DNA of 47,924 nt from positions 1-47,924 of the forward strand of contig DAINRP010000001.1 in assembly GCA_036741755.1 (NCBI GenBank), read 5' to 3'. The notes below the pieces were generated by a model that was not told where the DNA came from, did not search any database, and saw nothing but the letters and a program-made list of their open reading frames with translations. Position numbers and translations under genes: made by a program. Origin of the DNA: Gemmatimonadales bacterium. GTDB lineage: Bacteria; Gemmatimonadota; Gemmatimonadetes; Gemmatimonadales; GWC2-71-9. Below are positions 13,537 through 30,343 of this stretch, piece after piece. Position 1 is the stretch's first letter, and each line of letters opens with the position of its first letter.

Positions 13537-14018
13537 GCGTGCGAACCTCGGCCGGAGGCGCCAAGACCCGTCCGGCGCCTATGCGCCGAGGATCCGCGTG
13601 TCCGGTCAAAAAAGTCTGGAGCCCGGCGGTCGGGTTGGCGCGGGTCATAGACCTGCGCCCTGACCACCGGGACTGCCCCGCGACCGACCATTCGGTCGCC
13701 TGGGACGTGGAATTGGGATACGATCCTGCGGAATGCCGTTCGGCCCCGGCGCGAGGAGCGCTTGGGTGCCCGGCACCACCGGTCTTCCTGCGGCGAAGCT
13801 GATCCACTACTGGCGGGACGACCGCTGGAGCGCGCCGTCCCACGATACGCGGCCGGGCACCGAGGAGCCGTCCCCCCAGAAGGAGAACGGCCGCCACGGG
13901 AGCGTACCAATTGCCCAGCCAATTCAGAGGCATGGGCTAAAGATAGGATTGGCTGGGGGTTAGAGCAACAGGCGATCCGGGAAGGAGCGGTTCGGGATCA
14001 CCGCCCCTCACGGTTTCT

Positions 14019-15242
14019 TCAGCTGGCGATCTCGCCCAGGATCTGCCGCGCGATGACGATACGCTGGATTTCGCTCGTCCCTTCTCCGATTTCGCAGACC
14101 TTGGCGTCCCTCATCATCCGCTCGACCGGATACTCCGTGGTATAACCGTATCCGCCGAATATCTGCACTGCCCTGGTGGTGGCCCGCATCGCCAGTTCGG
14201 AGCAGAAGAGCTTGGCCATCGCCGCCTCCTTCTTGAACGGCTTGCCATTCTGCTTGAGCCAGGCGGCGTGGTACAGGAGATGAGTCCCCGCCTCGATTTC
14301 GGTCGCCATGTCCGCGAGCTGGAAACTCACGCCCTGGAAGCTGCCGATCGGCTTGCCGAACTGCTTCCGGATGCCGGCGTACCGCAACGCTTCCTCATAC
14401 GCGCCTTCGGCGATGCCAAGGGAGAGCGCCGCGATGCCGATCCGGCCGCCGTCGAGGGTCTTCAAGAAGTTGATGAACCCCTGTCCCGGGGCCCCGAGGA
14501 TGTTCTCCTTGGGCACCACCGCGTCTTCGAAGATCAGCTCGCGGGTGTCGCTGGCACGCCAGCCCATCTTGTCTTCCTTCTTGCCCGCGCGGAAACCCCT
14601 GATTCGCGGCAGGCTCTCCTCGTGACCGACCCCAACCGCACGACAGGTCTCGAGGTCACAGGTCTCCTTGGTCAGAATGAAGCTCGTAATGCCCTTGTTC
14701 CCCTTGCCGGGCTCAGTGCGCGCGGTCGCCACAAAGATCTCGCCGACGCCGGCGTGGGTGATGAAGATCTTGGCACCGTTGAGGAGATAGTGGTCGCCCT
14801 TGTCGACGGCGGTCGTCGCCGTGCCGCCCGCATCACTCCCCGCCCCGGGCTCGGTCAGCCCGAAGCCCCCCAGTACCTTGCCCGAGGCGAGGAGCGGCAC
14901 GTAGCGCTGCTTCTGCTCGGCGGTTCCGAAGTCCACGATCGGCGAAGTACCGAGGTTGGTGTGCGCGCTGATGGTGAGCGCGTGGCTGGCATCGGTCTTC
15001 GCCAGTTCGTGGATCGTGATATAGTAGGAAAGCTGATCCATGCCTGCGCCGCCGAGCTCCTCCGGCCACGGCACGCCCAGCAGGCCGAGGTCTCCCATCT
15101 TGCGGACGTTTTCCCAGGGGAAGGCGGAGGTGCGGTCGAGTTCGCGGGCCACCGGGGCAACCTCGGTCCGGGCGAATTCGCGCACCATGTCGCGGACCTG
15201 AAGATGCTGCTCGGAGAAGTAGAGCGAGAGATCCATGGTCAA
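14019..15242 (-). CDS. Acyl-CoA dehydrogenase (short/medium-chain type)
   Basis: 407 aa. Contains GLTEPGAGSDAGG, GKKEDKMGWRASDTRELIFED, and the C-terminal QIFGGYGYTTEYPVERMMRDAKVCEIGEGTSEIQRIVIAR. Confidence 0.93.
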   Translation of the reverse strand: MTMDLSLYFSEQHLQVRDMVREFARTEVAPVARELDRTSAFPWENVRKMGDLGLLGVPWPEELGGAGMDQLSYYITIHELAKTDASHALTISAHTNLGTSPIVDFGTAEQKQRYVPLLASGKVLGGFGLTEPGAGSDAGGTATTAVDKGDHYLLNGAKIFITHAGVGEIFVATARTEPGKGNKGITSFILTKETCDLETCRAVGVGHEESLPRIRGFRAGKKEDKMGWRASDTRELIFEDAVVPKENILGAPGQGFINFLKTLDGGRIGIAALSLGIAEGAYEEALRYAGIRKQFGKPIGSFQGVSFQLADMATEIEAGTHLLYHAAWLKQNGKPFKKEAAMAKLFCSELAMRATTRAVQIFGGYGYTTEYPVERMMRDAKVCEIGEGTSEIQRIVIARQILGEIAS

Positions 15243-15277
15243 GACTCGATCGAGGGGTTGGGAAGAGTGGCGGAGAA

Positions 15278-15283
15278 TATAAT
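15278..15283 (+). promoter_or_regulatory. Candidate -10 box (TATAAT) for the sugar dehydrogenase gene
   Basis: A perfect TATAAT sits in the lowest-GC part of the divergent 106-nt intergenic region, about 65 nt upstream of the ATG at 15349. I found no convincing -35 element at 17-nt spacing. Confidence 0.3.
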
Positions 15284-15348
15284 CAGGCGTCTTCGACCGG
15301 CGCCTCGTTTATCTTTATGCACCTCACAGCGCAGCCAGGGCACTCGAC

Positions 15349-16530
15349 ATGACGACCTTCATCGGCGGCTCGACGGTTCGACCACTCGGACTCATAGGCC
15401 TCGCCATCCTCGTTGCCGCATGCGGTGATTCCACCGCACCGCGCAGCCCGATCAGCGCGCTTGCGCTCGTGCCGGTCGATAGCGGCTTCGATTTTTCGGT
15501 GTTTGTCGCGGGTCCCCCGGGCGACGCGTCCCGGCTGATGATCGTGGAGCGCGGCGGCCGGATCCTCCTGCGAAAGAACGGGGTGCGACAGGATTCCGCC
15601 TTCCTCAACCTCACCGGCCTCACCAATCCTTCCACTGGCGAGTATGGCGTCTACAGTATCGCCTTTCACCCCAACTATGCGGCCAATCGGCGGCTCTTCG
15701 TCTACTACGCGGACCTGAACGGGGACAGTCAGCTCGCCGAGTTCCAGGCGGACGCGAGCTTTGACCACGCGATCCCCGCCAGCCGAACCACAATCCTGAG
15801 CCAGACCCAGGATTCGGAGAGCGTGCTGTATGGCGGGCTGATCAGCTTTGGACCGGACGGCAAGCTGTATCTCGGTCTGGGCGACGGGAGCCCGACCGAC
15901 TCGGTGCTCTTCACCGCGCAGGACAGCGCGTCGCTCCTGGGCAAGATCCTGAGGCTCGACGTCGACGGGGTTGCGCCCTACACGATCCCGGCGGACAACC
16001 CGTATGTGGGCCGGCCGGGCTGGCGGGGAGAGATCTGGCAGCTCGGGCTCCGAAATCCATGGCGCTGGAGCTTCGACCGGGCGAACGGTGAGCTCTGGAT
16101 CGCCGACGTGGGGGAAGACCTCTGGGAGGAGATCGACTACCTGCCAACCCCGGTCGTCGGCGGCAACAATTTCGGCTGGCCGTTTGTTGAAGGCACACAC
16201 TGCTTCGTGCCGGCCGTGGGGTGCGTCACCACGGGGCTGGTGCTGCCGGTCATCGAGTACGCCCACAGCCCGTCCTGCGCGGTCACCGGAGGGTACGTGT
16301 ACCGCGGCAGAAAATATCCGGACCTCCGGGGCACCTATTTCTACGGCGACTACTGCACCGGGTTCATCCGCAGCGTCCGCAGCAGCACCGGGACTCCTGT
16401 CCCCGTCTACACCCCACTCTCCCCTCCCCTCACGAACGACAACATCGTGTCATTCGGCGAGGATGCCGATGGAGAGGTCTATGTGGTCATGGCGTCGGGA
16501 CGGGTGTACCGGATCGCGCTGGTAAGTTAG
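15349..16530 (+). CDS. PQQ-dependent sugar (glucose/sorbosone) dehydrogenase family beta-propeller lipoprotein
   Basis: Lipobox ILVAAC. Contains GLISFGPDGKLYLGLGDGS, LGKILRLDVDG, IWQLGLRNPWRWSFD...GELWIADVGEDLWEEI and NFGWP, all typical of the GSDH/HHIP-like family. Confidence 0.85.
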   Translation: MTTFIGGSTVRPLGLIGLAILVAACGDSTAPRSPISALALVPVDSGFDFSVFVAGPPGDASRLMIVERGGRILLRKNGVRQDSAFLNLTGLTNPSTGEYGVYSIAFHPNYAANRRLFVYYADLNGDSQLAEFQADASFDHAIPASRTTILSQTQDSESVLYGGLISFGPDGKLYLGLGDGSPTDSVLFTAQDSASLLGKILRLDVDGVAPYTIPADNPYVGRPGWRGEIWQLGLRNPWRWSFDRANGELWIADVGEDLWEEIDYLPTPVVGGNNFGWPFVEGTHCFVPAVGCVTTGLVLPVIEYAHSPSCAVTGGYVYRGRKYPDLRGTYFYGDYCTGFIRSVRSSTGTPVPVYTPLSPPLTNDNIVSFGEDADGEVYVVMASGRVYRIALVS

Positions 16531-16554
16531 AGCAGCCGGAGCGCCAGCGACCCG

Positions 16555-17946
16555 CTACCGGCGGAATACGGCGACAATGCGCCGCAGCGGAGCCTGCGCC
16601 CCCGAGCAGACGTCGCAGTTGCCACAGGGCCGAGCCTCCTCCCCGAAGTACGCCAGCAACGCCTGTCGCCGGCAGCGGGCCATGGTGGCGTAGCGTTCGA
16701 CCACCTGCAGCCGATCCGCCGCCGCGGAGCGCCGCCGCGTCACTCGACCCCAATCCACCGCGCCCTGCTCAGGGCAGAGTTCGGCCGCGAGCCGGTCGGC
16801 GGACGCCACGACCCCGGCGGGGTGACGCGCGCGTCGGCCCGGATCGGCCCAGAGCTCCTCGAGCACCTTGCGGGGAGGAAAGGTCACATCGAGCTGGCGG
16901 CGGTGAACCTCCGCGTCAGACACATGATGCAGGAGCACACACCGCCCCGGCTGCCCGTCACGCCCGGCCCGCCCGGATTCCTGATAGTAGGCCTCCGGCG
17001 TCGGGGGCATCCCCCAGTGCACCACCAGCCGCACCCGCGGTGCGTCGATCCCCATGCCAAATGCGGATGTCGCGACGACGACATCGAGTTCTTCAGCCGT
17101 GAACCGTGCCAATACCTCGGCACGGCGCTCCCGAGTGAGCCCGGCATGATAGGAGGCGGACCGGTGGCCGGCGAACCAGAGTGCCTGCGCCACCGCATCG
17201 GCGCTGTTCCGCGTCGGGACGTAGACGATGCTGAGGCCTGGCCGCGGCGCCAGCATCGCGCGCAGCCGCGGCAGCCGTTCGGCGCTGCCCCGGATTCGCT
17301 GCACCTCGAACCGCAGATTGGGACGATCGAACGAACCGAGATGCAGATCATGCTTCCCGTAGCCGAGCGAGCGGGTGATATCCATGCGTACCTCCGGCGT
17401 CGCGCTGCCAGTCAGCGCGACGGTGGGGGGGCGGCTCAGCTCCTCGCGGAAGATCGCCAATTGCCGGTAGCCGGGTCGGAAGTCGTGCCCCCACTCACTG
17501 ATGCAGTGCGCCTCGTCGATCGCGAGCAGGGACGGGCGCTTGTTGAGACGGGCGAGATCGAGGGCGAGTCGCGGCGCGCGCTCGGGAGAGACATAGAGCA
17601 GTCGCATTGAGCCGTCGGCCACCCGGGCGAGGGCAGCCTCCTGATCGGCCGGTGCCTTGAGCGAGTTCAGAGTGTCGGCTGCAACGCCGCGGTGCTGCAG
17701 GGCGGCAACCTGATCCTGCATCAGCGCCAGCAGCGGAGAGATGACGACCGTGAGCCCGCCAAGCACCAGGCCAGGGACCTGAAAGCAGATCGACTTGCCG
17801 CCTCCCGTCGGCAGCACCGCGAGAACATCGCGACCGGCGAGCACCGACTGGACGACACGCCGCTGCAGGGGACGGAAGTCCTGGAAGCCGTAGTGGCCAT
17901 GAAGGAGGCGGCGAGCCTCGGCGATGCGATCAGCGAGTGGGGTCAC
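16555..17946 (-). CDS. recQ: RecQ-family ATP-dependent DNA helicase (short form, no HRDC domain)
   Basis: GTG start. Contains FRPLQRRVVQSVLAGRDVLAVLPTGGGKSICFQVP, DEAHCISEWGHDFRPGY, VATSAFGMGIDAPRVRLVVHW, and the zinc module CRRQALLAYFGEE..PCGNCDVC. Confidence 0.92.
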   Translation of the reverse strand: MTPLADRIAEARRLLHGHYGFQDFRPLQRRVVQSVLAGRDVLAVLPTGGGKSICFQVPGLVLGGLTVVISPLLALMQDQVAALQHRGVAADTLNSLKAPADQEAALARVADGSMRLLYVSPERAPRLALDLARLNKRPSLLAIDEAHCISEWGHDFRPGYRQLAIFREELSRPPTVALTGSATPEVRMDITRSLGYGKHDLHLGSFDRPNLRFEVQRIRGSAERLPRLRAMLAPRPGLSIVYVPTRNSADAVAQALWFAGHRSASYHAGLTRERRAEVLARFTAEELDVVVATSAFGMGIDAPRVRLVVHWGMPPTPEAYYQESGRAGRDGQPGRCVLLHHVSDAEVHRRQLDVTFPPRKVLEELWADPGRRARHPAGVVASADRLAAELCPEQGAVDWGRVTRRRSAAADRLQVVERYATMARCRRQALLAYFGEEARPCGNCDVCSGAQAPLRRIVAVFRR

Positions 17947-18045
17947 CCGGCGAAGCTACCGGGCGGGTCAGGGATGCAGCGGTACGAAACGACGAAGAGC
18001 GGGGCGAGAAACTCCGGGTGGGGCGTGTCCGCAGTCGGAGCGCCC

Positions 18046-18195
18046 TCAGTTCTTGCCGCGAAGCCAGAATCGGAGTGCGAGCGCTACCGCGAGCACCGCC
18101 ATAGCGGCCCAGACGAGCGGCTGGCTGTCGAGCCCGATGCCGGCGGCTGCGAGAAGAAAGCCGAGGACGGCAAGAAAGAGCTTGAGGCGTCTCAT
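18046..18195 (-). CDS. 49-aa small membrane protein with two predicted TM helices; below the track length cutoff
   Basis: My translation is MRRLKLFLAVLGFLLAAAGIGLDSQPLVWAAMAVLAVALALRFWLRGKN*. The ATG (18195..18193) overlaps the crotonase TGA (18194..18192) as ATGA. GC3 is high, like neighbouring genes. Confidence 0.55.
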   Translation of the reverse strand: MRRLKLFLAVLGFLLAAAGIGLDSQPLVWAAMAVLAVALALRFWLRGKN

Positions 18196-18944
18196 TTCTT
18201 GAGGAAGGCGGAGATGGCCGTCCGGAATTCGGGGTGGGCGCGGGCCAGGGCGTTGACCCGCGCGCCGAGCGCGATGCCTTCGCTGAAGCTTTGACCATCA
18301 AGTTCGTAGAGCAGCCGCTTGGTCAGCGCGAGCGCCGATGCACTGCTGTACGCGAGGCCGGCGATGACCGCTGCCGCCGCAGACTCGAAGACCGTCTCCG
18401 GAATGACGCGTGAAACCAGTCCGTGCTCCAGGGCCTCTTCCGCAGTGAGCAGCCGTCCGGTCGCGACGAGATCGAAGGCCCGGCGCTCTCCGACAAGGCG
18501 GCGGAGCATTGTCATGACCATCGCCGGCACGAAGCCGCGCTGGATTTCCGGATAGCCGAACTGGGCGGTCTCGCAGGCGAGCACCAGGTCGCATCCGGTG
18601 GCGAGCCCCGCCCCCCCTGCGAGCGCGCGCCCCTGCACGAGGGCAACCACCGGCTTGGGCAGTTCCCGCATCCGAACGAAGAGCCTGCCGAGCCGGAGAG
18701 CTGCCCGTTCGTTGTCCTCCATTGTGCGCAGGGCGGAATCGAGCAGTTCCTCGAGGTCCGCGCCGGCGCAGAAGTCCCTGCCCGCTCCCCGCACCACGAC
18801 CACCCGTACCGCGGCATCGAGATCGGCGCGATCGAGCGCCTGATGCAGCGCCTCAATCAGTGCCGAGTCGAGCGCGTTTCGCTTCTCGGGGCGGTTCAGG
18901 GTGAGCGTGAGCACACCCTCGGTGAGCGCGGTGAGGAGAGTCAT
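18192..18944 (-). CDS. Enoyl-CoA hydratase/isomerase (crotonase) family protein
   Basis: Track ORF trimmed to MTLLTALTEGVLTLTLNRPEKRNALD. Contains VVVVRGAGRDFCAGADLEE and LVQGRALAGGAGLATGCDLVLA...FGYPEIQRGFVPA. Confidence 0.9.
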   Translation of the reverse strand: MTLLTALTEGVLTLTLNRPEKRNALDSALIEALHQALDRADLDAAVRVVVVRGAGRDFCAGADLEELLDSALRTMEDNERAALRLGRLFVRMRELPKPVVALVQGRALAGGAGLATGCDLVLACETAQFGYPEIQRGFVPAMVMTMLRRLVGERRAFDLVATGRLLTAEEALEHGLVSRVIPETVFESAAAAVIAGLAYSSASALALTKRLLYELDGQSFSEGIALGARVNALARAHPEFRTAISAFLKK

Positions 18945-18945
18945 C

Positions 18946-19335
18946 TCAGCTCCTGGGCGCGAGCCGGCGAGCGAGGGCGACCGGTACGGGGATCTCCATG
19001 CGCAGGAGCGCGGTCGAGTAGACCTTCCCCTGCGCGTCGGTCTTGAGCGAGATAGTGCCGCCGCCATCGAGGGCGCCATGCAGGAGGAAATTCAGCGCCT
19101 TCAGATTAGGGAGTTCGAAACGCTCGACCCCTTTGACCATGCCCTTGAAGTGACGCGTGACCCGCGCGAGCGTCACCTCCTTGACCAGCAGCGGATAGTA
19201 CTCCGGCTCCAGCGCCACGAGCCCCACGTTCGCGGTGTCGCCCTTGTCCCCTGACCGGGCGTGAGCAAGGTAGCGGAGTTGCAGGAGGCGGGTCGCCGGA
19301 GCCGCGCCGCCCCGACTCTTCCGTGCATCAGGCAT
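18946..19335 (-). CDS. Small AtuA-associated protein (DUF4387-like)
   Basis: 129 aa. [22 protein letters not shown]...[21 protein letters not shown] matches my memory of the short partner protein usually encoded next to, or fused with, DUF1446/AtuA. It overlaps the AtuA-like gene by 8 nt. Confidence 0.6.
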
Positions 19336-20704
19336 CGAGCACCTCCACCTGCACGAACGGCTCGATCTCGGTCCGATCGATCAGCGCCGGCCAGTACGCC
19401 ACCACCTCCTGCACCTCGGGACGCCCACCGGCGAAGCCGGTCACGCTCGGCGGCCCGGTCAGCACCAGCGGGGCGATCTCGCGGGTGAAGCGCTCCACGG
19501 CGGCCTTGTCCTTCGAGCGGACACCGACGCGGAGCTGCACCTCGGGGGCCTCCGGATCCGCCGGGCCGGCCAGCGGCCCGTGGGTCGAATCCACGCCCAC
19601 GAACTCGGTGAGGATCTGCTCGAACTCGAGGCCGAGGTCCTTGAGGCGGGCACGGAGGATCCGGTCGGCGGCCTTCGCCTTCTCGTAGGCTTCGGGCCAG
19701 CTGTAGACGAGGGTGCCGACCGCCTTGTAGCCGTAGAAATAGGCGATCGAGACCTTGAGCTTGTCGGTCTTCTCGCGCCCGCGGATGCCGCTGACCCTCA
19801 CGCGGTCCTTGCCCGCCTGGGCGAGCTGGATCGAGGTGAAGTCGGCGACCCCGTCGGGCGTGATGTAGGTGTGCGGATCGCCCATCTCGTAGACCAGTTG
19901 TTCGGTCACGCTCGCGACGTTCACGACGCCACCGGTGTTAGGGTGCTTGGTCACGATGAACGTGCCATCGGCGCTCGCCTCGGCGATCGGGAACCCGGGA
20001 TTCTCGAGTCCTTTGACCTTGCGCCAGTTCTTGAGCAGGTTGCCGCCGCTCGACTGGGCGCCGCACTCGATGATGTGCCCCGCCACGGTACCCGCGGCAA
20101 CCTTGTCCCAGTCATTCACGTCCCAGCCGAACTCGTGGAACAGCGGCCCGAGGGTGAGACCGGTATCGGTCACCCGGCCGGTAATGACTACCTGGGCGCC
20201 GCGCCGCAGCGCCTCCACCATCGGGGCCATGCCGAGATAGGCATTCGCCGACAGCACTTTGTCCCGCACATCGGTGAGCAGGCGTCCGGTGTCGAGATCG
20301 CGCAGCTCGTGCCCCTTGGCCAGCAGCTCATCGAGCCTCGGCAGGATGTCATCACCACTCACGAGGCCGATCTTCACCTTGGCCGACAGGCCCAGCTTGC
20401 GGGCGACTTCGCGGACCGCCTCCGCGCAGGCCCGGGGATTCACCCCGCCGGCATTGCTGGTGACCTTGATGCCCTTCGCGGCGATGTCGGGGAGGATGCG
20501 CTCCATGAGGGGCACGAAGTCGCGCGCGTAGCCGTAGCGAGGGTCCCGCGACTTCTGCTTCTGCATGATGGACATGGTCACCTCGGCGAGGTAGTCCATC
20601 ATGAGGTAGTCGATCGGGCCGCCCTTCACCTGACGGACGGGCGCTTCGAGCCAGTCGCCCCAGAATCCCTGGCCGGCGGCGACGCGGACAGTTTTCGCGG
20701 TCAT
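19328..20704 (-). CDS. AtuA-family (DUF1446, acyclic terpene utilisation) protein
   Basis: Track ORF trimmed to [47 protein letters not shown] (ATG at 20704, ATGA overlap with the S8 peptidase stop). This is the typical DUF1446 N-terminus, and the length is 458 aa. Confidence 0.75.
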
Positions 20705-23526
20705 TGAGTACTCGTGGTTGTCGGTGCCGGGAGCGGCACCTCTCGGGTCCAGGTGCGATCCTGCTCCGGCACGACAACGATGCCCAGCGGCACGAAGCCT
20801 TCGCCGATAGGCAGCCCCGGTGGCTCCATCGGAACGTGCAGCGTGGAGGAAGCCCCAGGGGCCACGGTGACGCGGCTCCCCGCGAGCCGCGAGACATGGG
20901 CGGAATCGGCATAGAGCCGGACCGACACGGTCGCCGACCACCGCTGCGCTGCGGAGGGCTCAGCGAGCCCCGGGAAGAGTTCCAGATCGACGTCCCCGCC
21001 CCCGCGTTTGGGCAGGTCCACGTGCAGCCGTCCAAAGGCGTAATTCAGCGGGGACTTGCCCAGCTGGCGGCCGTCGCCGTCGAACAGCGTCACGCCGAAA
21101 TCGGTAAAGATCGGCCATTGCGCGCGATCCATGCTCACGTCCACGGCGGCGTGAACCGCCCAGTCAGGCAGGCTGAACCGCACGTGACGGGCGTCCCCGC
21201 CAGTCCCGGCAACCGTCACGCTCCGCTCGGCGCCGACCAGGACGACGAAGGGATCGCTGGTGACCGGTGCGGCGCTGACATTGCCGAGCGTGACGGCAAC
21301 GTCGTGGGCCTGCCGCGTCGCCGCGATGGTCACCGGGCTGTGCTCGACGATGATCACCGCGGTGGCGCCATCGAGCGGCGGTGCCACTGCGACGGCCTCG
21401 TAGAATCCGGGAACGACATCCCGCCCGTCCACCATGTAGAGTCCCGCCTCGTCACCATACCCTGCCCCGATGCCGTTCTCCTCCCGGTATGGCTGTCCGC
21501 CCGGCTCGTGCAGGTAGGCTACCACCTGCTCACCGGCGGTGAGGGTGGCGAAGGCGACCGCGAAGGGGCGCGCGGCGGAGGCCTGGAAGAACACCCGGCC
21601 CTCGTTGCCAGCAGGCAGGCGACCGAGGTCGGCCACGACGGTCTCGCCGGTGTCGGCGACCGCAATGCTGTTCACCAGCCGGAAGGCCGGCCCGGCGATG
21701 GTATCGGCGGTCCAGCCGGTGACGATGGCCGTGTGCAGGCCCGGAGTCGCGATCGAATCGGCGGCGTAGCTCATCGTGAGCGTGTTGGTGCCGGCGTTCA
21801 GCCGCGCCTCACGAGGGGCATGCAGCCAGGCGGCGGAGGAGCGCAGGGTCACCGCCGTTTCGGGACTGCCGGCTGGCAGTACCAGCCGGAAGGCCTGCAC
21901 CGTGTCCCCTGCTGTGCCGACGAGCCGGTGGCGAAACGCGGCGGTCACGCCGTTGCCGGCCGCGCGCACCGCGATGTCAGGCAGCGGGTGAACTCCGGCG
22001 AGCCACCGCCACGCGGCCCCGACATCCGGCTGTCCGGTGCCGTCATCCAGGTAGGTCCCCGCGGCCGTCGGACGGGCGGTGACCATCAGCGCCTGACGTA
22101 CCTGCCGCGCATCGACAGTCCGCTTCTCCTGCGCGAGCCCGCTGACCAGCAGCGCGGCGAGACCGGCGGCATGCGGCGACGCCATGCTGGTGCCGGCCTT
22201 CCGCTCGTCGCCGACGTTCCAGCGGGGCACCGTCGAGAACGCGAGCCCGGGCGCGACGATGTCCGGCTTGGAGAGCTCCCCGCCCCGCGATGAGAAGTAG
22301 GCGACCGGGTCTCCGCCCTGTCCGCTGGCGCCGATGAAGACCCCGGGAAAGGTCGCCCCGACCGTGAGGGCGCGGGTGGCCGAGCCGGGGTAGCCCATGG
22401 TGGAGAGCCCGGGGCCATCGTTGCCGGCGCTGATAGCCATGATCACATCCGGGTGCGCCGCCAGCACCGAGTCGAGCGTCCGGTCGATCCGGGCCAGCCC
22501 TTCGCCCTCGTTGCCGACGCCGAAGCTCAGGTTGAGGACCAGCGGCAGCCGCCGCTCCTGTGCGAAGCGGATCGCGTAGCCGATGGCCGCGACCATGCTG
22601 CCGGAGGTCGAGATCCCCCCCTGGGCGTTGTTCGCGATCTTGAGACCGAGGAGCGAGGCGCCCGGCGCCACGCCATTGAAGCCGGCGACACCGTAGATAT
22701 CGTGCCCCGAGGCGATCCCGGCCACGTGCGATCCGTGGGCGCTGGTGTCGAAGTAGAGATCGAGGTGCGGCTGGCCCTTCTCGTCCCGCAGATTCACCGC
22801 GAGTGCAACATTCGGCGGCCGGGCGCCGGTGTGCCACCCGAAGGTCTCCTTCGAGGCCAGGTAGTCGTGCACCGGCCGCTCGTTCGCAAGCGAGCCGTCG
22901 CCATCGGTGTCGGCAAACAGGACCCAGCCATCGCTCGCCCGGGCAACGAGGACCGCCAGGGTGTCGGTATCATCCCGGTCGCCGTTCAGGTCCGCGGCAG
23001 GCAGCTCGCCGAGGGGGATCTCGGCGATGCTGCCGCCGTACAGCGTCCCACCCGCCGCCAGCGCCCGCACGCGGGAAATGCCGCGGAGCACCTTTCCCCC
23101 GATCGTGACCTGGTCACCCACCGGCACCACCGATGTGAGCGGGACCACGCCTTCGCCGGAGAAATCCCGCAGGTCGAGAATCTTCCGCTCGCCGGCGGTG
23201 GTGGTGGTCAGGCCCGGAATCGACGGATCAATGCCGCTGTCCAGAATGCCGATGAGCACCCCGCGGCCGTCATAGGTCGGGTGGGCCTTGAGGAAGTCCT
23301 CGACGCCGGTGGCACGGAGCGGCATCCAGCCCCGCGCGAATGCCTCCTGTGGGGAGATCACCGGCTTCGGGTCGGCCGTCGCCTCCTGCGCGCCCGGGGC
23401 GGCGGCGTCTCGGCTCGGGACGGCAGGAGGCACAACGGGGGGCCGCGCGTGGCTGCAGGCGACGAGGAAACCGGCAAGCAAAGCCAGGGCACAGTACGGG
23501 ACCCCGACGAACCTGGGCGACATCAT
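20701..23526 (-). CDS. S8 subtilase, tripeptidyl-peptidase-II-like, lipoprotein (about 941 aa)
   Basis: Start trimmed to [24 protein letters not shown] (lipobox). Catalytic triad: Asp in [12 protein letters not shown], His in [13 protein letters not shown], Ser in [16 protein letters not shown]. About 175 aa separate Asp from His, against about 30 in classical subtilisins. The C-terminal region is about 480 aa. Confidence 0.85.
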
Positions 23527-23539
23527 GCGAGGGGTCCGT

Positions 23540-25171
23540 TCACCCGATCGGCGGAAGGACGAAGGGCCCGATGTGCGGGCCCGCAAAGTTGCTGGTCACC
23601 CGCAGCAGGAATGCCAGCTGGTCCCGGGTTTCCTCAACGGTGACCAGTGCATCGACATGACCGCGGGCCGCGGCATTTTTGGCGTCGAGCTGGTGCTCGT
23701 AGTCCGCGCGCATGGCGGCGGCGGCCGTCTGCACCTCCGGCGTCGGCGGACGCTTCTCCGCTCGGGCGCGAGCCAGCTCGACGCCATGCACAGCCTCCAC
23801 CGCCGACTCTCCCTCCATGACCGCCATCCGACCGGTGGGCCAGCTCAGGATGAAGTCCGGATCGAACCCCTGCCCCGCCATCGCGTAATAGCCCGCGCCG
23901 GACGCGTGATTCAGCGTCAGCACGATCTTCGGTACCACGGCAGTGGACATCGCTTCCACGAAGCGGGCTCCCGCGCGGATGATGCCCGACTGCTCGGCCT
24001 CGGTCCCCACCATGAATCCGCTGACGTCCTGCAGGAAGAGCAGCGGAATCCGTTCCCGGCTGGCGGTCTCGATGAAGTACGCGGCCTTCTCGGCGCTCTC
24101 GGTGTAGATGATGCCGCCAATCCGCGGCATCTGCCCGGCCTTGCCCTTGATGACGGTCCGGGCGTTGGCGAGAATCGCGACCGGCTGCCCTTCGATGCGG
24201 GCATGCCCGCACAGCAGCTCCTTCGCGAAGTCGGGCTGAAACTCGTCGAGCCGGCCGTCATCGAGCAGACACGCCAGCAGGGCGTGCATGTCGTAGGAGA
24301 GCCGGTGATCGGCGGGGAGGATGTCGTACAGATCGGTGACCGGACGGCTGGGCGGGCGCGGGGGCTCCACCCGGTGCTGCACCTGCTGCATCCGCGGCAG
24401 GCGGGCGATGTAGCCGCGCACCATCGTCACGCATTCCCGATCAGTCGCGGCGCGATAATGTGCGACCGCGGACTGGGAGGTGTGCATCGCCGCGCCCCCG
24501 AGGGACTCGGCGTCCACCACCTGCCCCGTCGCGCCCTTCACCAGATTGGGGCCACCGAGCCCCATGAAGCTGGTCCCGTCGACCATGAAGATCACGTCGG
24601 AGAGCGCGGGCAGATACGCCCCTCCCGCGATGCAGCTCCCCATGACGGCGCTGACCTGCGGCACGAAGAGGTAGCGTCGCATGATCGAGTTGTAGTAGAA
24701 GATCCGCGCGGCGCCGTACTGTCCTGGAAAGACGCCGCCCTGATAGGGGAGGTTCACGCCGGCCGAATCGACCAGGTAGATGATCGGGATCCGCTGCCGC
24801 ATCGCGACTTCCTGGGCGCGCAGGATCTTGGTGATCGTCTCCGGCCACCAGGAGCCGGCCTTCACGGTGGCGTCGTTCGCGACGATGACGACTTCGCGGC
24901 CTTCGACAATACCCAGGCCGGTGATCACGCCCGCCCCGGGCGCCTGACCCTCGTACTGGTCGTAGGCCACGAGCAGGCCCAGCTCCAGCCACGGCGCGCC
25001 GGGATCGAGCAGCGCCTGGACCCGCTCCCGCGGGGCAAGCTGCCCCTTCTCGTGCATCTTCGCGACGCGCTTGGCGCCGCCGCCCTCGCGCAGCTTCGCG
25101 GCGAGGGCGAGGTATTCGTCGGTGAGCGTACGCAGGCGCGGCGGGCGCGAGGTCACGGGCTTGGTGGTCAA
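23540..25171 (-). CDS. Acyl-CoA carboxylase/decarboxylase carboxyltransferase subunit (MccB/AtuC/GcdA-like clade)
   Basis: 543 aa. VIVANDATVKAGSWWPETITKILRAQEVAMRQRIPIIYLVDSAGVNLP and VMGSCIAGGAYLPALSD carry the ANDATVK motif of the MccB/AtuC/GcdA type, rather than the DFTVxGGS motif of PccB. Confidence 0.85.
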   Translation of the reverse strand: MTTKPVTSRPPRLRTLTDEYLALAAKLREGGGAKRVAKMHEKGQLAPRERVQALLDPGAPWLELGLLVAYDQYEGQAPGAGVITGLGIVEGREVVIVANDATVKAGSWWPETITKILRAQEVAMRQRIPIIYLVDSAGVNLPYQGGVFPGQYGAARIFYYNSIMRRYLFVPQVSAVMGSCIAGGAYLPALSDVIFMVDGTSFMGLGGPNLVKGATGQVVDAESLGGAAMHTSQSAVAHYRAATDRECVTMVRGYIARLPRMQQVQHRVEPPRPPSRPVTDLYDILPADHRLSYDMHALLACLLDDGRLDEFQPDFAKELLCGHARIEGQPVAILANARTVIKGKAGQMPRIGGIIYTESAEKAAYFIETASRERIPLLFLQDVSGFMVGTEAEQSGIIRAGARFVEAMSTAVVPKIVLTLNHASGAGYYAMAGQGFDPDFILSWPTGRMAVMEGESAVEAVHGVELARARAEKRPPTPEVQTAAAAMRADYEHQLDAKNAAARGHVDALVTVEETRDQLAFLLRVTSNFAGPHIGPFVLPPIG

Positions 25172-25203
25172 GTGAGGATCACGGTGTACACGAGGGATCG
25201 GGA

Positions 25204-25638
25204 TCAGCCCTGGAGATGTTCGCCGGCCCAGACCTCGATGTACTGGATCAGGTCCGACGTCGGCGTGCCCGGGCCGAAGAGCCTGCCCACGCCGAGCTGC
25301 TCGAGCGCTTCCATGTCCTCCTTCGGAATGATGCCCCCGCCAGTGAGCAGGATGTCCGGGCGGCCCGCTTCGGTGAGCAGGGTCCGTACCCGGGGAAAGA
25401 GCGTCATGTGGGCGCCGGAGAGAATCGAGAGGCCGACCACGTCGACGTCCTCCTGGACGGCGGCCGTCGCGATCATCTCCGGGGTCTGGTGCAACCCGGT
25501 GTAGATCACTTCCATGCCGGCGTCGCGCAGCGCGGCGGCCACCACCTTGGCGCCACGGTCATGCCCGTCCAGCCCGGGCTTGGCCACGAGCACGCGGATG
25601 GGACGAGCGAGCGGCTTCCTGTCGAGTGCGGCAACCAT
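25204..25638 (-). CDS. Acyl-CoA mutase small subunit (cobalamin-binding domain)
   Basis: 144 aa. [41 protein letters not shown] has the DxHxxG B12-binding motif, and SILSGAH...GGGIIP is also present. Confidence 0.92.
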
Positions 25639-25664
25639 GGGAGTCCGGCGGTCAGAGGGTTGTT

Positions 25665-26372
25665 TTAGGTGCGTGCCGAGGCGGCCGTCAGGCTGCCCGT
25701 CGGCGCCAGGACCATTTCGACGACGTCGGCGAGGCTCGCGGCGATCGGGACGTCGCGTCCGGCGTGATTGCCCAGCGGATCGAGGAGCACCACGTCCATG
25801 CGGGCGCGCCGCGCCCCCACCACGTCGACTTCGTAGATGTCACCCACATAGATCGCCTCCTCGGGGGCGAGTGCCATGCGGCGCAGCGCCGCCTCGAAGA
25901 TCCGCGGGTCCGGCTTCTCGAAGCCGACCAGTTGCGAGTCGATCACCACTTCGAAATAGCCGCGGAGCCCTGCCGCCTCGAGTCCCTCCTCGGCGCGGCC
26001 GTCGCTGTTGGAGACGACCCCGAGGCGGTATCCGGCCGAACGGAGTCGGTCCAGCGCTTCGATGGTCCCGTCGAGCACACCACCCCAGAGATGCTTCTCG
26101 AGGTGCAGCGCGAGCAGGGTCTCGCGCACCACAGGCATCTGGCTCTCCGGCACACCGGCGAGCCGGAAGAGTGTTTCGAGATACCGCGAGGCCCGCTCCC
26201 GGTCCGTGGTATCCCCGCGTTCGAGCGACAGCGCCGCCGGTCGCGCCTGCAGCGCCAGCGACTCCGCAGTGAGCGGAACACCAGTCGCCTGGGCCACCGC
26301 CGGCGCGAGCCGGGGGTAATCCAGGAACAGGAGCGTGTTGCCGGCGTCGAAGAGAACCGCTTTTCGACTCAC
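25665..26372 (-). CDS. HAD-superfamily hydrolase, subfamily IA
   Basis: Track ORF 25665..26660 trimmed to the GTG at 26372 (GTGA overlap with the upstream stop). Four HAD motifs are present: motif [12 protein letters not shown] (D-x-G variant), motif II VVSNSD, motif [13 protein letters not shown], motif [15 protein letters not shown]. Confidence 0.8.
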
Positions 26373-27520
26373 CGGAACCGGTACAATCCTGCGATCCCGT
26401 TGATCGCGGCCACCGCTTCCGGATCGTAGAGCACCTCCACCTCCACCCGCTGACGCAGCGCCTCTTCGATCGCGTCGTCGATCAGGTCCAGGACGGGATG
26501 CACGTCGCCGTCGTTGCGGAGATCGCGCTCCGCCACCGCCAGCCGGCCGGTCTTGCTTGAGCGGAAGCCGGGGCCCTGTGCGTCGGCGTCCACCAGCAGG
26601 GTGCGCACCTGCCCGCGACCGAGGGCGCGCAGCGTCGCGTCCGGACCGTCGGAGGCCCATCCGGCGCCGAGCGCGTCCTCGAGTCCATGCGCGATGGTCC
26701 GCTCCGACTCCCGCTCATACTCGGCGCGGGTAGCGAGTGTGGCCTCGTATACCACCGCGGCGGTGGTCTCCTTCGGATTCAAACTCACCACGCCCATCAG
26801 CCGCTCCGCCAGGTACGGGTGCAGGAACGCCGCCACGGCGCCGGCGTCGTTGCCGGGTCCCGCGAGGACGACACCATGCACCGGGCGTTTCCGGTGCAGC
26901 GCAAAGAGCCGCTCGGCGATCATGGCGTAGTGGCGCTGCTTCTCCTCGCGGATCCGGTTGTTGTACTGATGCTCCCCCTTGCCCGGTGAGTCGGCCCGGT
27001 CGCTGTGGAAGCGCCCGCCGCGGGTGGTCTCCGAGCGCAGGTCCTCGACCTCCTCGGCGCCGAACGCCGTGACTTCGAAGAACCGGGCGGCAGTGCGGTC
27101 AAGGACCACGGTGAGCAAGGTGCCGATCTCGTCCTCGACCGAGGCGAGCTCCCGCACCAGTGCCGTACGGTCGACGGCGAGGCGCGAGCGGTGCACGCTG
27201 GGGAGACCCACGAGTTCGAAGAGCTTGAGCGGGCCGCAGGCGAAGATGGCAAGTCCCTGGGTCGCGGGCAGACGGGCCGCATCCTTGAGCTGGTCCTGGA
27301 TCCGCTTGAGATCAGCGCTGACCTCCTCCCGCTGGTGCCGCGTGAGGCCGAGCCCCTCCAGGGCCCCTTCGACCTCACGGATGCGGTTCTTGAGCTTGAT
27401 GAGGTACTTGCCCCGGGAGCGGTCCCGGGGTTCGACCTTGAGATAGCAGGTCACGATGCGATGATCGTCGGTGCGCAGCTTGGTCAGCCGCGTGAGAAGC
27501 TTCTGGATGTCGTTTGCCAT
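26369..27520 (-). CDS. Bacterial eRF1/Pelota-fold (baeRF-type) protein with GGQ replaced by GGR
   Basis: 383 aa. LLTVVLDRTAARFFEVTAFG..VEDLRSETTRGGRFHSDRADSPGKGEHQYNNRIREEKQRHYAMIAERL aligns by eye with the eRF1 M-domain (FGFIVMDGNGALFG...[33 protein letters not shown]). The C-terminal [11 protein letters not shown] resembles the eRF1/Pelota C-terminal GIGGILRY. Confidence 0.7.
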   Translation of the reverse strand: MANDIQKLLTRLTKLRTDDHRIVTCYLKVEPRDRSRGKYLIKLKNRIREVEGALEGLGLTRHQREEVSADLKRIQDQLKDAARLPATQGLAIFACGPLKLFELVGLPSVHRSRLAVDRTALVRELASVEDEIGTLLTVVLDRTAARFFEVTAFGAEEVEDLRSETTRGGRFHSDRADSPGKGEHQYNNRIREEKQRHYAMIAERLFALHRKRPVHGVVLAGPGNDAGAVAAFLHPYLAERLMGVVSLNPKETTAAVVYEATLATRAEYERESERTIAHGLEDALGAGWASDGPDATLRALGRGQVRTLLVDADAQGPGFRSSKTGRLAVAERDLRNDGDVHPVLDLIDDAIEEALRQRVEVEVLYDPEAVAAINGIAGLYRFR

Positions 27521-27599
27521 GGGTCTTTCAGCCGCGATCGGACCGTCCTGACCGCCGGCAGGAGCGCCGCGGTTGAGGACCGACTGTTCGCGGATCCGA

Positions 27600-29315
27600 T
27601 TAGAAGAACACCGGCTCCCGATAGGTGCCGTAAACGCTTTCCATCACATGCCGGATCTCGAAGAGCGTACAATAGGCCCGGGCACAGTCGAGCATCGCGG
27701 GGATGACGTTTCGGCCCTCCGCGGCCGCCCGCCGCAATTCGGCCAGCCGCGCATCGACCAACGCCTGGTCGCGCGTGGCGCGGAGCGCCGCCATCCGCTC
27801 GCGCTGTACCCGCTCCGCCTCCTCACCCACCTTGAGGATGGTGACCGGTCCCTCGTCTGCTTCCACGCCTTCGTTCAGGCCGACGATCAGCCGCCGGCGC
27901 TGTTCGACCTCGGACTGGAAGCGGGAGGCCGACTCGGCGATCTGCCGCTGGAACCAGCCTCCCTCGATGGCGCGTACCACCCCGCCCTGGGCTTCGATCT
28001 CGGCGAAGAGCCCCGCCGCTTCGCGCTCCAGGCCGTCCGTCAGGGCCTCGACGTAGTAGGAGCCGCCCAGCGGATCGGCGACGTTCGGGACGCCGGTCTC
28101 GTAGGCGAGGATCTGCTGGGTGCGCAGCGCGATCCGCACCGATGCCTCGGTCGGCAGGGCGAGCGTTTCATCGAGGGCGTTGGTATGCAGCGACTGGGTC
28201 CCGCCGAGCACCGCGGCGAGGGCCTGATAGGCGACGCGCACGATGTTGTTGTACGGCTGCTGCGCGGTGAGCGAGACGCCCGCGGTCTGGCAGTGGAAGC
28301 GCATCTGGCAGCTGCGCGGCTTCGTGGCGCCGAACTTCTCGCGCATGGTGCGCGCCCAGATGCGCCGGGCCGCGCGCATCTTGGCGATCTCCTCGAAGAA
28401 GTCGTTGTGCACGTCCCAGAAGAACGACAGGCGCGGCGCGAAGCTGTCCACGTCGAGCCCGCGCGCGACACCATGCTCCACATAGCAGAAGCCGTTGGCC
28501 AGGGTGAACGCCAGTTCCTGCGCCGCGGTGGCGCCCGCCTCGCGAATGTGGTAGCCGGAGATCGAGATCGTGTTCCAGCTCGGCGTATGCTCCGCCGCCC
28601 ACTCGAAGAGATCGACGATCACCTTGAGCGCCGGTTCCACCGGGAAGATCCAGGCATGCTGGGCCATGTACTCTTTCAGCATGTCGTTCTGGATCGTGCC
28701 CTGCAGCTTGCTGATGTCCGCGCCCTGGCGTTCCGCCGCGGCGACGTAGAAACAGAACAGCATGGCGGCCGGGCCGTTGATGGTCATCGAGGTGGAGACC
28801 CGGTCGAGCGGGATCCCCGCGAAGAGATCCTCCATGTCGCGGAGGCTCGAGATCGCCACGCCGCACTTGCCGACCTCCCCCTCGGACCGCGGGTGGTCGG
28901 CGTCGTAGCCCATCAGCGTGGGAAAATCGAAGGCCACCGACAGGCCGGTCTGGCCGCGGGCGAGCAGAAACTTGTAGCGTTCGTTGGTGTCCTGGGCGGT
29001 CCCGAACCCCGCGAACTGGCGCATCGTCCAGAGGCGCCCGCGGTACATCGTCGGGTGAATGCCGCGAAGATAGGGATATTCCCCCGGCAGTCCCGAGGCT
29101 GTGAACTGATCGCCCCGCACATCAAGAGGGGTGTACACCGGGGCGACACTCCGCCCGGAGATCGTGGTGAAATCCGTATCCTCACGCCGGGGCAGCGCCG
29201 CCGCGCGCTCGCGCCAGGCGGCCACCTCGGCGCGGAGCTGATCCAGCTCTCGGGCCTGCGCAGCGAGGCGCTCTTCGGGCGAGCGAGAGGCGGGATCGGG
29301 CTTCGAGACGGTCAT
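27600..29315 (-). CDS. Cobalamin-dependent acyl-CoA mutase large (catalytic) subunit with an isobutyryl-CoA-mutase-like active-site signature
   Basis: Track ORF trimmed to MTVSKPDP (ATG at 29315, ATGA overlap with the meaB stop). Contains [70 protein letters not shown] and [18 protein letters not shown]. 571 aa, with no B12-binding domain. Confidence 0.9.
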
Positions 29316-30343
29316 AGACGCGTTCCCTGCTTGAGTCCGTCCAGCACTTCGGCGGCCACTTCGTAGGGGCTCATCCGGCCGGCGGCCACATCGTCCATCC
29401 GATCGCGGATCATCTGCTCGACCCCGGTCTCCTGCCACACCCACTGCCGAGCGGTGCGATCAACCACCTCACGGGTGCGGTCGTGCAGCCGGCGCCGGCG
29501 CCGTTCCCCCAGTTGTCCGGCCCGGGACAGCATCTCGAAGTGCGCGTCAATCGCCGTCACCAGTTGGTCCACTCCCTCGCCCTTCGCCGCGACCGTGGCG
29601 AGCACCGGCTGCTTCCAGTTCGGCACCGGCGGCTCCTCCGTCCGGGGGGCAGCCGTCGCCGACGGGCCATGGTGGGCCCGGACATGCCGCATCGCGTTCC
29701 CGCTCCGGATGCCCAGCGTGATCTCGATCTCCTGCCGCAGCCGGTCGGCCCCCGGCCGGTCCGCCTTGTTCACCACGAAGATGTCGCCGATCTCCATGAT
29801 GCCGGACTTGAGTGTCTGGATGCCGTCGCCCGATTCGGGCACCAGGACCAGCACCGTTGTGTCGGTGCTTCTGGCGACGTCGAGCTCCGTCTGCCCCACG
29901 CCCACGGTCTCGACCAGAATCCGGTCGAACCCGCCGGCATCGAGCACATCGCAGACCTCGCGTGTGGTGGTGGCGAGCCCGCCCAGCGATCCGCGGGTCG
30001 CCATGGAGCGAATGAACACGCCGGGATCCAGCGCCACCGACTCCATGCGGATCCGGTCACCGAGAAGCGCCCCGCCGGTGAACGGACTGGTCGGATCCAC
30101 CGCCACCACGGCGACCGTCAGCCCTTGGGCCCGGTAGGCCTGAACCAGCCGCTCCGTCAGGGTGGACTTCCCCGCCCCGGGCGGCCCGGTAATACCGATA
30201 CGCCGGGCGTGACCCAGCGCGGGATGAATGGAGGAGAGGAGTTCCTCGAAACCGGGTCGGGCGTTCTCAACCAGCGAGATCGCGCGAGCGATCGCGGGCA
30301 CCTTCCTGGCCCGAAGGTCGGCCACGAGGGGGGCGAGTTGCAT
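29312..30343 (-). CDS. meaB: MeaB/ArgK-type G-protein chaperone for B12-dependent mutases
   Basis: [18 protein letters not shown] (P-loop), [21 protein letters not shown] and VVNKADR. It lies directly upstream of the mutase gene and overlaps it. Confidence 0.92.

Follow-up and report, generated by a model that had tools for sequence, protein, structure and literature searches.

Several described systems resemble parts of the locus studied here. Leucine and isovalerate are degraded through the Liu pathway (LiuABCDE; AccD1-AccA1 in Mycobacterium tuberculosis), and the Pseudomonas atuABCDEFGH cluster for terpene use brings together an AtuA-family protein, a carboxylase beta subunit and a crotonase, a combination also carried on Rhodococcus and Roseovarius plasmids. 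To our knowledge, AtuA itself long had no assigned function in that pathway. A gene of the AtuA family, also called DUF1446, was reported without explanation in 2015 in an enterobacterial glutamate-fermentation cluster, at a time when it was not known what becomes of citramalate (PMC4682846), and the citramalate lyase (Cml) of Raoultella planticola has been described as an enzyme of two subunits, cmlAB (bioRxiv 10.64898/2026.01.16.699985). Here we analysed a stretch of 47,924 nucleotides (the window) at the start of contig DAINRP010000001.1, from a Gemmatimonadales metagenome-assembled genome (MAG; GCA_036741755.1, assembly 81% complete), in which enzymes of these kinds are encoded in a real, tightly packed, operon-like block and the gene of a large S8-family serine peptidase (S8), related to eukaryotic TPP II, lies between those of a carboxyltransferase (CT) and AtuA. 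The layout is unusual, but all of its parts are known kinds of enzyme.

The comparison with related loci newly points to one ancient insertion of S8 into a coupled junction, an empty site that survives in a sister lineage, and vertical co-inheritance of S8 with its neighbours.

The embedded S8 gene and its history

All six genes of the cluster lie on the minus strand. A previous interpretation of this DNA, made from its letters without database searches (the sequence-only reading), had proposed their order and five junctions, which match the sequence exactly, and open reading frame (ORF) and profile checks confirmed order and domain calls:

23540-25171, minus strand: carboxyltransferase (CT), MCC-beta/AccD1-like, 543 aa (PF01039 Carboxyl_trans, E 8.7e-132)
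23527-23539, minus strand: spacer of 13 nt between CT stop and S8 start (direct sequence reading)
20701-23526, minus strand: TPP II-like S8 serine peptidase, predicted lipoprotein, 941 aa (PF00082 Peptidase_S8, E 3.6e-38)
20701-20704, minus strand: ATGA overlap of S8 stop and AtuA start (sequence)
19328-20704, minus strand: AtuA/DUF1446 large subunit, candidate CmlA-like lyase, 458 aa (PF07287, E 8.9e-155)
19328-19335, minus strand: 8-nt overlap of AtuA and AtuA_fd (sequence)
18946-19335, minus strand: AtuA_ferredoxin (AtuA_fd), small partner encoded by a separate gene, 129 aa (PF23544, E 2.2e-28)
18945, minus strand: 1-nt gap between AtuA_fd and crotonase (sequence)
18192-18944, minus strand: crotonase-family enoyl-CoA hydratase (ECH), candidate 3-methylglutaconyl-CoA hydratase, 250 aa (PF00378 ECH_1, E 1.8e-50)
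18192-18195, minus strand: ATGA overlap of crotonase stop and 49-aa ORF (sequence)
18046-18195, minus strand: small membrane-peptide ORF, 49 aa (weak HGxxPAAW match, 25.3 bits against a cutoff of 33)

Of 24 genomes of the same genus, 23 carry S8, as do 7 of 8 from a second Gemmatimonadales family, in each case between CT and AtuA. The absence from close relatives contemplated in the sequence-only reading is thus not what is seen, and the insertion is not a recent one. In a third family, AtuA is present in 27 of 31 genomes, and a single genome of 8 gave an S8 match, weak and located elsewhere in the genome. A homologue search with AtuA had yielded only relatives of at least 84% identity, uninformative on distant contexts; 80 further loci came from scanning metagenomes with an alignment of AtuA, bringing the AtuA loci scored to 117. 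S8 lies upstream of AtuA in 88 of these, CT lies directly upstream in 6, CT plus another insert in 10, and neither CT nor S8 is present in 5, the remaining 8 being too short to classify. Every S8-bearing locus that we fetched is ordered CT-S8-AtuA-AtuA_fd-ECH, and this order recurs 88 times among related genomic and metagenomic loci, which rules out an assembly chimera or a chance arrangement. Despite sequence divergence to about 41% identity, S8 was neither lost nor moved in any of the 88. Among the S8-less loci of high GC content, L122 and L125 belong to MAGs named at NCBI as Gemmatimonadales and Gemmatimonadaceae, respectively; those of low GC content belong to Pyrinomonadaceae (Acidobacteriota). 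Three loci from long-read MAGs (L038, L044 and L046) carry many apparent frameshifts in all genes of the block, which most probably reflect faulty assembly and not pseudogenes.

In the AtuA tree, one branch separates all 88 S8 loci from the 21 loci without S8, a distribution that requires one change. The three clades of the AtuA tree reappear in the S8 tree, with support of 100 each, indicating that S8 has co-diverged with the neighbouring AtuA. The GC content at third codon positions of S8 (0.86) is in line with that of the neighbour genes, and this agreement, together with the co-divergence, rules out a recent insertion.

The junctions tell a similar story. A -4 nt overlap joins S8 to AtuA in 75 of 87 S8-bearing loci, and the two genes lie within 9 nt of each other in 83; the start sites of both are backed by orthologue alignments. 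In each of the three high-GC loci without S8 that allowed scoring (L093, L122 and L125), CT is joined to AtuA by the same -4 ATGA overlap, which indicates that S8 was inserted into an already coupled pair and inherited its overlap. At the other end of the gene, the distance from the CT stop to the candidate S8 start is -4 to about +25 nt in most orthologous loci.

The sequence-only reading had proposed either that the operon is a mosaic or that AtuA-family proteins work here in a context other than terpene catabolism. The first proposal is borne out by two groups without S8, a sister lineage within Gemmatimonadota and the Pyrinomonadaceae, in which CT abuts AtuA, and by the single tree branch; of the second, the departure from terpene use holds, with a CT of MCC-beta type and a CmlA-like AtuA (see below). 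Both are largely right and compatible with each other. We consider it very probable that the operon is a mosaic produced by one ancient S8 insertion followed by vertical co-inheritance. The sequence of events would have been as follows: the CT-AtuA core would be older than S8, with an ancestral CT stop overlapping the AtuA start at ATGA; in the common ancestor of the two Gemmatimonadales families, a TPP II-like S8 gene would have been inserted once, exactly at this junction; its own stop codon would have taken over the ATGA overlap with AtuA; and S8 would then have been inherited vertically with its neighbours, its active site remaining intact. The locus thus offers a natural case of operon evolution: a coupled pair received the foreign gene of an exported enzyme, which then stayed fixed for a long evolutionary time, while the empty site can still be seen in a sister lineage. 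It should be useful for work on the acquisition of passenger genes by operons and on the re-formation of stop/start overlaps.

The S8 peptidase

The best match of S8 among solved structures is Drosophila TPP II (PDB 3lxu), both in sequence and in fold, by more than 15 orders of magnitude. In sequence (E 1.6e-36) the match consists of two aligned stretches and includes the insert between the catalytic Asp and His: residues 195-512 of S8 align to 210-527 of 3lxu, and 167 residues separate D96 from H264. An AlphaFold model of moderate confidence (pLDDT 65.7) matched 3lxu in Foldseek with E 1.4e-33 and a query TM-score of 0.52 over 1046 columns, and the second-best match reached only E 1.5e-09. 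S8 therefore shares with the eukaryotic enzyme the catalytic residues, the long Asp-His insert and beta-rich central domains, but it is shorter (941 aa against 1354 aa) and begins with a lipoprotein signal, whereas TPP II is a cytosolic giant homo-oligomer.

The lipobox signal peptide at the N-terminus is conserved in the orthologues, and the lipobox Cys24, the catalytic triad and the oxyanion Asn (D96, H264, N369 and S447) are invariant in 16 of them. Judged from its sequence, S8 is predicted to be an exported lipoprotein rather than a cytosolic enzyme, and its catalytic centre appears intact. In the three closest pairs, the ratio of nonsynonymous to synonymous substitution rates (dN/dS) was 0.12-0.16 for S8, compared with about 0.04 for CT and AtuA and about 0.09-0.11 for the crotonase, values which indicate that S8 is kept under purifying selection. 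A pseudoprotease is ruled out by the invariant catalytic residues and a dN/dS of about 0.14. The locus gives a defined genetic setting to a bacterial protein related to eukaryotic TPP II.

The acyl-CoA module and the AtuA pair

Among solved structures, CT scored best with the MCC beta subunit of P. aeruginosa (3u9r, E 1.6e-115, 390 bits), closely followed by AccD1 of M. tuberculosis (4q0g, 388 bits), with human MCCB also among the best relatives, and it scored lower with the beta subunit of geranyl-CoA carboxylase (5ikl, E 1.8e-90, 307 bits). The label AtuC-like, given to CT from its letters, is accordingly better replaced by MCC-beta-like, which is a difference from the Pseudomonas atu cluster and a likeness to the Liu pathway.

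The biotin carboxylase partner had been noted as missing from the neighbourhood, and a tblastn search with AccC over the flanks of 126 related loci (1.2 Mb) indeed returned no biotin carboxylase of the MCC alpha/AtuF type near the cluster, a further difference from the Liu pathway. A search of the 81%-complete assembly yielded only one biotin carboxylase/biotin carboxyl carrier protein pair, AccB-AccC on contig C193, in addition to carbamoyl-phosphate synthetase. This AccC is 57% identical to E. coli AccC, and the biotin motif of AccB reads EAMKI. On the Rhodococcus and Roseovarius plasmids AtuA adjoins both a carboxyltransferase and a biotin carboxylase, so the lack of a neighbouring alpha subunit is peculiar to the module as it occurs in Gemmatimonadota and Pyrinomonadaceae. 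The simplest reading of these sequences is that CT would share the housekeeping AccB-AccC. Another carboxyltransferase, of the PccB family, is encoded on contig C55 of the assembly, where the contig end truncates it.

The DUF1446 assignment of AtuA passed a profile hidden Markov model search (PF07287, E 8.9e-155), the match covering 436 of 437 profile positions, and we take AtuA_ferredoxin (PF23544) to be the current Pfam family for the small partner formerly labelled DUF4387-like. An AlphaFold2 model of AtuA (pLDDT 81, pTM 0.81) gave a sole strong Foldseek match, chain A of 9evf, on which it superposes over its whole length (E 1e-26, query TM-score 0.73, target TM-score 0.74). The entry is titled 'Citramalate lyase - ADP - pyruvate complex' and its depositors named the chain 'Acyclic terpene utilization AtuA family protein | Citramalate lyase, subunit A (cmlA)'. 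In sequence, AtuA and CmlA are only marginally alike (16% identity, profile E 0.057), and neither AtuA nor AtuA_fd has a significant sequence match in the PDB, the link to CmlA coming from the fold search alone.

A further possible likeness to CmlAB (PDB 9erq/9evf) is that two genes are present here, as two subunits are in Cml. In nearly all related loci that extend far enough, AtuA_fd comes after AtuA, the two being fused in Roseovarius and split in Rhodococcus; the split into two genes is itself a difference from the Pseudomonas atu cluster. The surroundings differ: CmlAB belongs to glutamate fermentation, with mal, glutamate mutase and FumD as neighbours (PMC4682846), whereas the pair studied here stands in a CoA-ester context of carboxyltransferase, crotonase and mutase. 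By analogy, we infer that the AtuA pair would act as a lyase after carboxylation and hydration, in the position held by HMG-CoA lyase in the leucine pathway, where the Liu pathway has neither a split AtuA pair nor an embedded exported peptidase. This would give AtuA-family proteins a specific role, the lyase step that follows carboxylation and hydration. In motif-level DRE-TIM scans of the 81%-complete assembly, LeuA on contig C117 was the sole match and no HMGL-type lyase was found.

The crotonase could take the hydratase step, as in the Liu pathway. The name AtuE-like that it had received goes no further than the crotonase family (ECH_1), and the protein reached no NCBIfam equivalog cutoff; from its gene context it is a candidate 3-methylglutaconyl-CoA hydratase. 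Further genes related to acyl-CoA metabolism, and others that are not, lie on either side of the cluster:

29312-30343, minus strand: MeaB (Pfam/NCBIfam)
27600-29315, minus strand: mutase large subunit (Pfam/NCBIfam)
26369-27520, minus strand: eRF1-like baeRF (Pfam/NCBIfam)
25665 to about 26375, minus strand: HAD hydrolase (Pfam/NCBIfam)
25204-25638, minus strand: B12-binding subunit of the mutase (Pfam/NCBIfam)
16555-17946, minus strand: RecQ helicase, last gene of the co-directional run (translation read by eye, no domain search run)
14019-15242: acyl-CoA dehydrogenase

Every intergenic gap from MeaB to RecQ is 100 nt or less. Where the flanks of S8-bearing loci allow, MeaB-mutase-(baeRF/HAD)-B12 lies upstream and RecQ downstream, the upstream block being collinear in relatives and the position of RecQ also kept, although RecQ is functionally unrelated to the acyl-CoA module. 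The acyl-CoA dehydrogenase is found about 3 kb past the crotonase, with RecQ and an opposite-strand gene in between; such an enzyme is a likeness to the Liu pathway, and its distance a difference from the atu cluster, for it is the only candidate here for the AtuD role. No homologues of AtuF, AtuB/G or AtuH were identified among the genes examined between 11.9 and 30.3 kb. Another difference from the atu cluster is the attached B12 mutase. The translation of its large subunit contains RQFAGFG and EYMAQHAW, a Phe/Gln pattern that we take to mark isobutyryl-CoA mutase and not methylmalonyl-CoA mutase.

A CT nearest to MCC beta and an AtuA with the fold of CmlA indicate a leucine-type lyase module and not an atu terpene cluster. 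The core looks like a leucine-type branched acyl-CoA module composed of an MCC-beta-like CT, a two-gene AtuA/CmlA-like lyase and a crotonase, and the B12 mutase and the cluster together point to leucine/valine-type branched-chain acyl-CoA metabolism rather than to terpene use. It is a variant of the Liu/Atu logic of carboxylase beta subunit, hydratase and lyase, with a lyase of AtuA/CmlA type and no local alpha subunit.

Retention of S8 in the operon

The explanation that we prefer joins the history described above to a shared use. S8, left without promoter room between its neighbours, would be transcribed from the operon promoter, and translation of AtuA would re-initiate at the S8 stop; the exported, lipidated peptidase would trim peptides outside the cytoplasm, and the cytoplasmic enzymes would then degrade the leucine- and valine-derived acyl-CoAs. 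One promoter would in this manner tie peptide supply to branched-chain breakdown. To the whole explanation, comprising insertion, inheritance, co-transcription and nutritional co-regulation, we assign a probability of roughly 0.5. Within it, co-transcription of S8 with its neighbours is quite likely and translational coupling of S8 and AtuA is plausible, while the nutritional rationale might equally be right or wrong. If co-regulation is true, it bears on how soil Gemmatimonadales, which are abundant and mostly uncultured, live on proteinaceous matter, and on soil nitrogen turnover.

Several observations weigh against this explanation. Co-transcription and coupling are both deduced from gene geometry, and that geometry is looser in the clade of the second family, where S8 and AtuA are spaced by 8-103 nt in 6 of 10 loci. 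Moreover, AtuA begins with ATG-A, so any in-frame upstream gene stops there and the overlap may be incidental. The branch that unites the S8 loci on the AtuA tree has a support of only 50. As regards the activity of the peptidase, Ser306 and Val337 of S8, both invariant in the orthologues, occupy the positions aligned to the two ruler glutamates of TPP II, presumably those numbered E312 and E343; as the glutamates are not conserved, tripeptidyl specificity is not assured and S8 may not be a tripeptidyl exopeptidase. Finally, the block also carries unrelated genes (a Balon-like eRF1 homologue, HAD and RecQ) and has junctions that vary among lineages, which means that position alone does not imply shared function.

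This last point is the basis of the strongest rival, to which we give somewhat less than even credence: S8 would have settled in a permissive junction as a neutral passenger, useful in itself and expressed from the host operon, with no tie to acyl-CoA metabolism. Besides the unrelated eRF1-like, HAD and RecQ genes, it draws on the space that separates the genes of the large and the B12-binding subunit of the mutase (25638-27600 in the window), which is filled differently across lineages: baeRF plus HAD, baeRF alone, HAD alone (L043) or nothing (L096, L110), and elsewhere a small secreted protein (L122:5317-5942) or a SAM methyltransferase (L125:3352-4172). In the same sense, an alpha/beta hydrolase (Abhydrolase_1, E 6.9e-33) lies between AtuA_fd and ECH in L113:9709-10614, and the core module is complete in the sister lineage that lacks S8. 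Two observations oppose it. S8 was never lost or relocated in the 88 loci, and a different exported protein with an HExxH motif sits on the same module in another phylum. In Pyrinomonadaceae, where CT is adjacent to AtuA or separated from it by other genes, this protein of 458-479 aa (motif HELTH) is encoded directly upstream of CT (L116:2776-4149, L113:3670-5106, L112:506-1858), its gene overlapping the CT start in L116. It matches the Hvo_1808 surface-protein family with E of about 1e-42, below the cutoff, and DUF6782, a putative metallopeptidase family, at a sub-threshold level. Its presence on the same module in a second phylum hints at a recurrent link to exported hydrolases. Between retention of S8 for co-regulation and retention as a neutral passenger, we consider the odds about even.

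A further rival holds that the block consists of separate transcription units, with promoters of S8, of AtuA-ECH or of both placed inside upstream coding sequence and the tight spacing reflecting compaction. Internal promoters or terminators, which the sequence-only reading had named as possible, were not seen: a crude scan, limited to the sigma-70 consensus and therefore a weak check, found no promoter- or terminator-like sites above shuffled expectation. A Shine-Dalgarno-like motif within 30 nt of the start (at -9 to -13) was present in 3 of 13 genes examined (13536-30343), which suggests that the host has low Shine-Dalgarno usage; as most genes of the block lack the motif, its absence before S8 or AtuA says little. 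Atypical expression signals of this kind, and promoters outside the sigma-70 consensus, could have escaped detection, which favours separate units, but there is no space between the genes at junctions of 13 nt and -4 nt, 75 of the 87 loci keep the overlap and no terminator-like site was seen at the junctions, and we judge this arrangement improbable. A direct partnership, in which AtuA would act with S8 on a peptide-derived or extracytoplasmic substrate, has in its favour only adjacency and overlap and is extremely improbable, given that no signal peptide was seen on reading the translations of AtuA and AtuA_fd, that the fold of AtuA is like that of a cytoplasmic ADP-binding lyase, and that AtuA accompanies carboxyltransferase and crotonase in S8-less lineages.

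A broader proposal extends our preferred explanation across the two phyla: the AtuA pair would cleave HMG-CoA or a close analogue, replacing HMG-CoA lyase, AccB-AccC would be borrowed for carboxylation, and each phylum would have recruited an exported hydrolase of its own. In this combined form we regard it as doubtful. If true, such loci would be 'protein-to-acetyl-CoA' operons, which tie extracellular proteolysis to branched-chain amino-acid breakdown through one promoter.

The slot between CT and AtuA, which S8 occupies in Gemmatimonadales, contains in ten Pyrinomonadaceae loci (among them L113:7199-7849, L112:3799-4806 and L084:1460-2341) the gene of another exported protein, small at about 180-340 aa, with a conserved 'TDLSGTYTG...TLTITGNQFT' core, low-complexity tails and no match in Pfam or NCBIfam. 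Its attachment to the module, like that of the HExxH protein, speaks for a functional tie. Two loci (L114 and L121) show, between AtuA_fd and the crotonase, an unannotated gap similar in size to the alpha/beta hydrolase insert of L113. The 49-aa ORF that follows the crotonase was detected by tblastn in the closest relatives only (L024, L026, L034 and L047).

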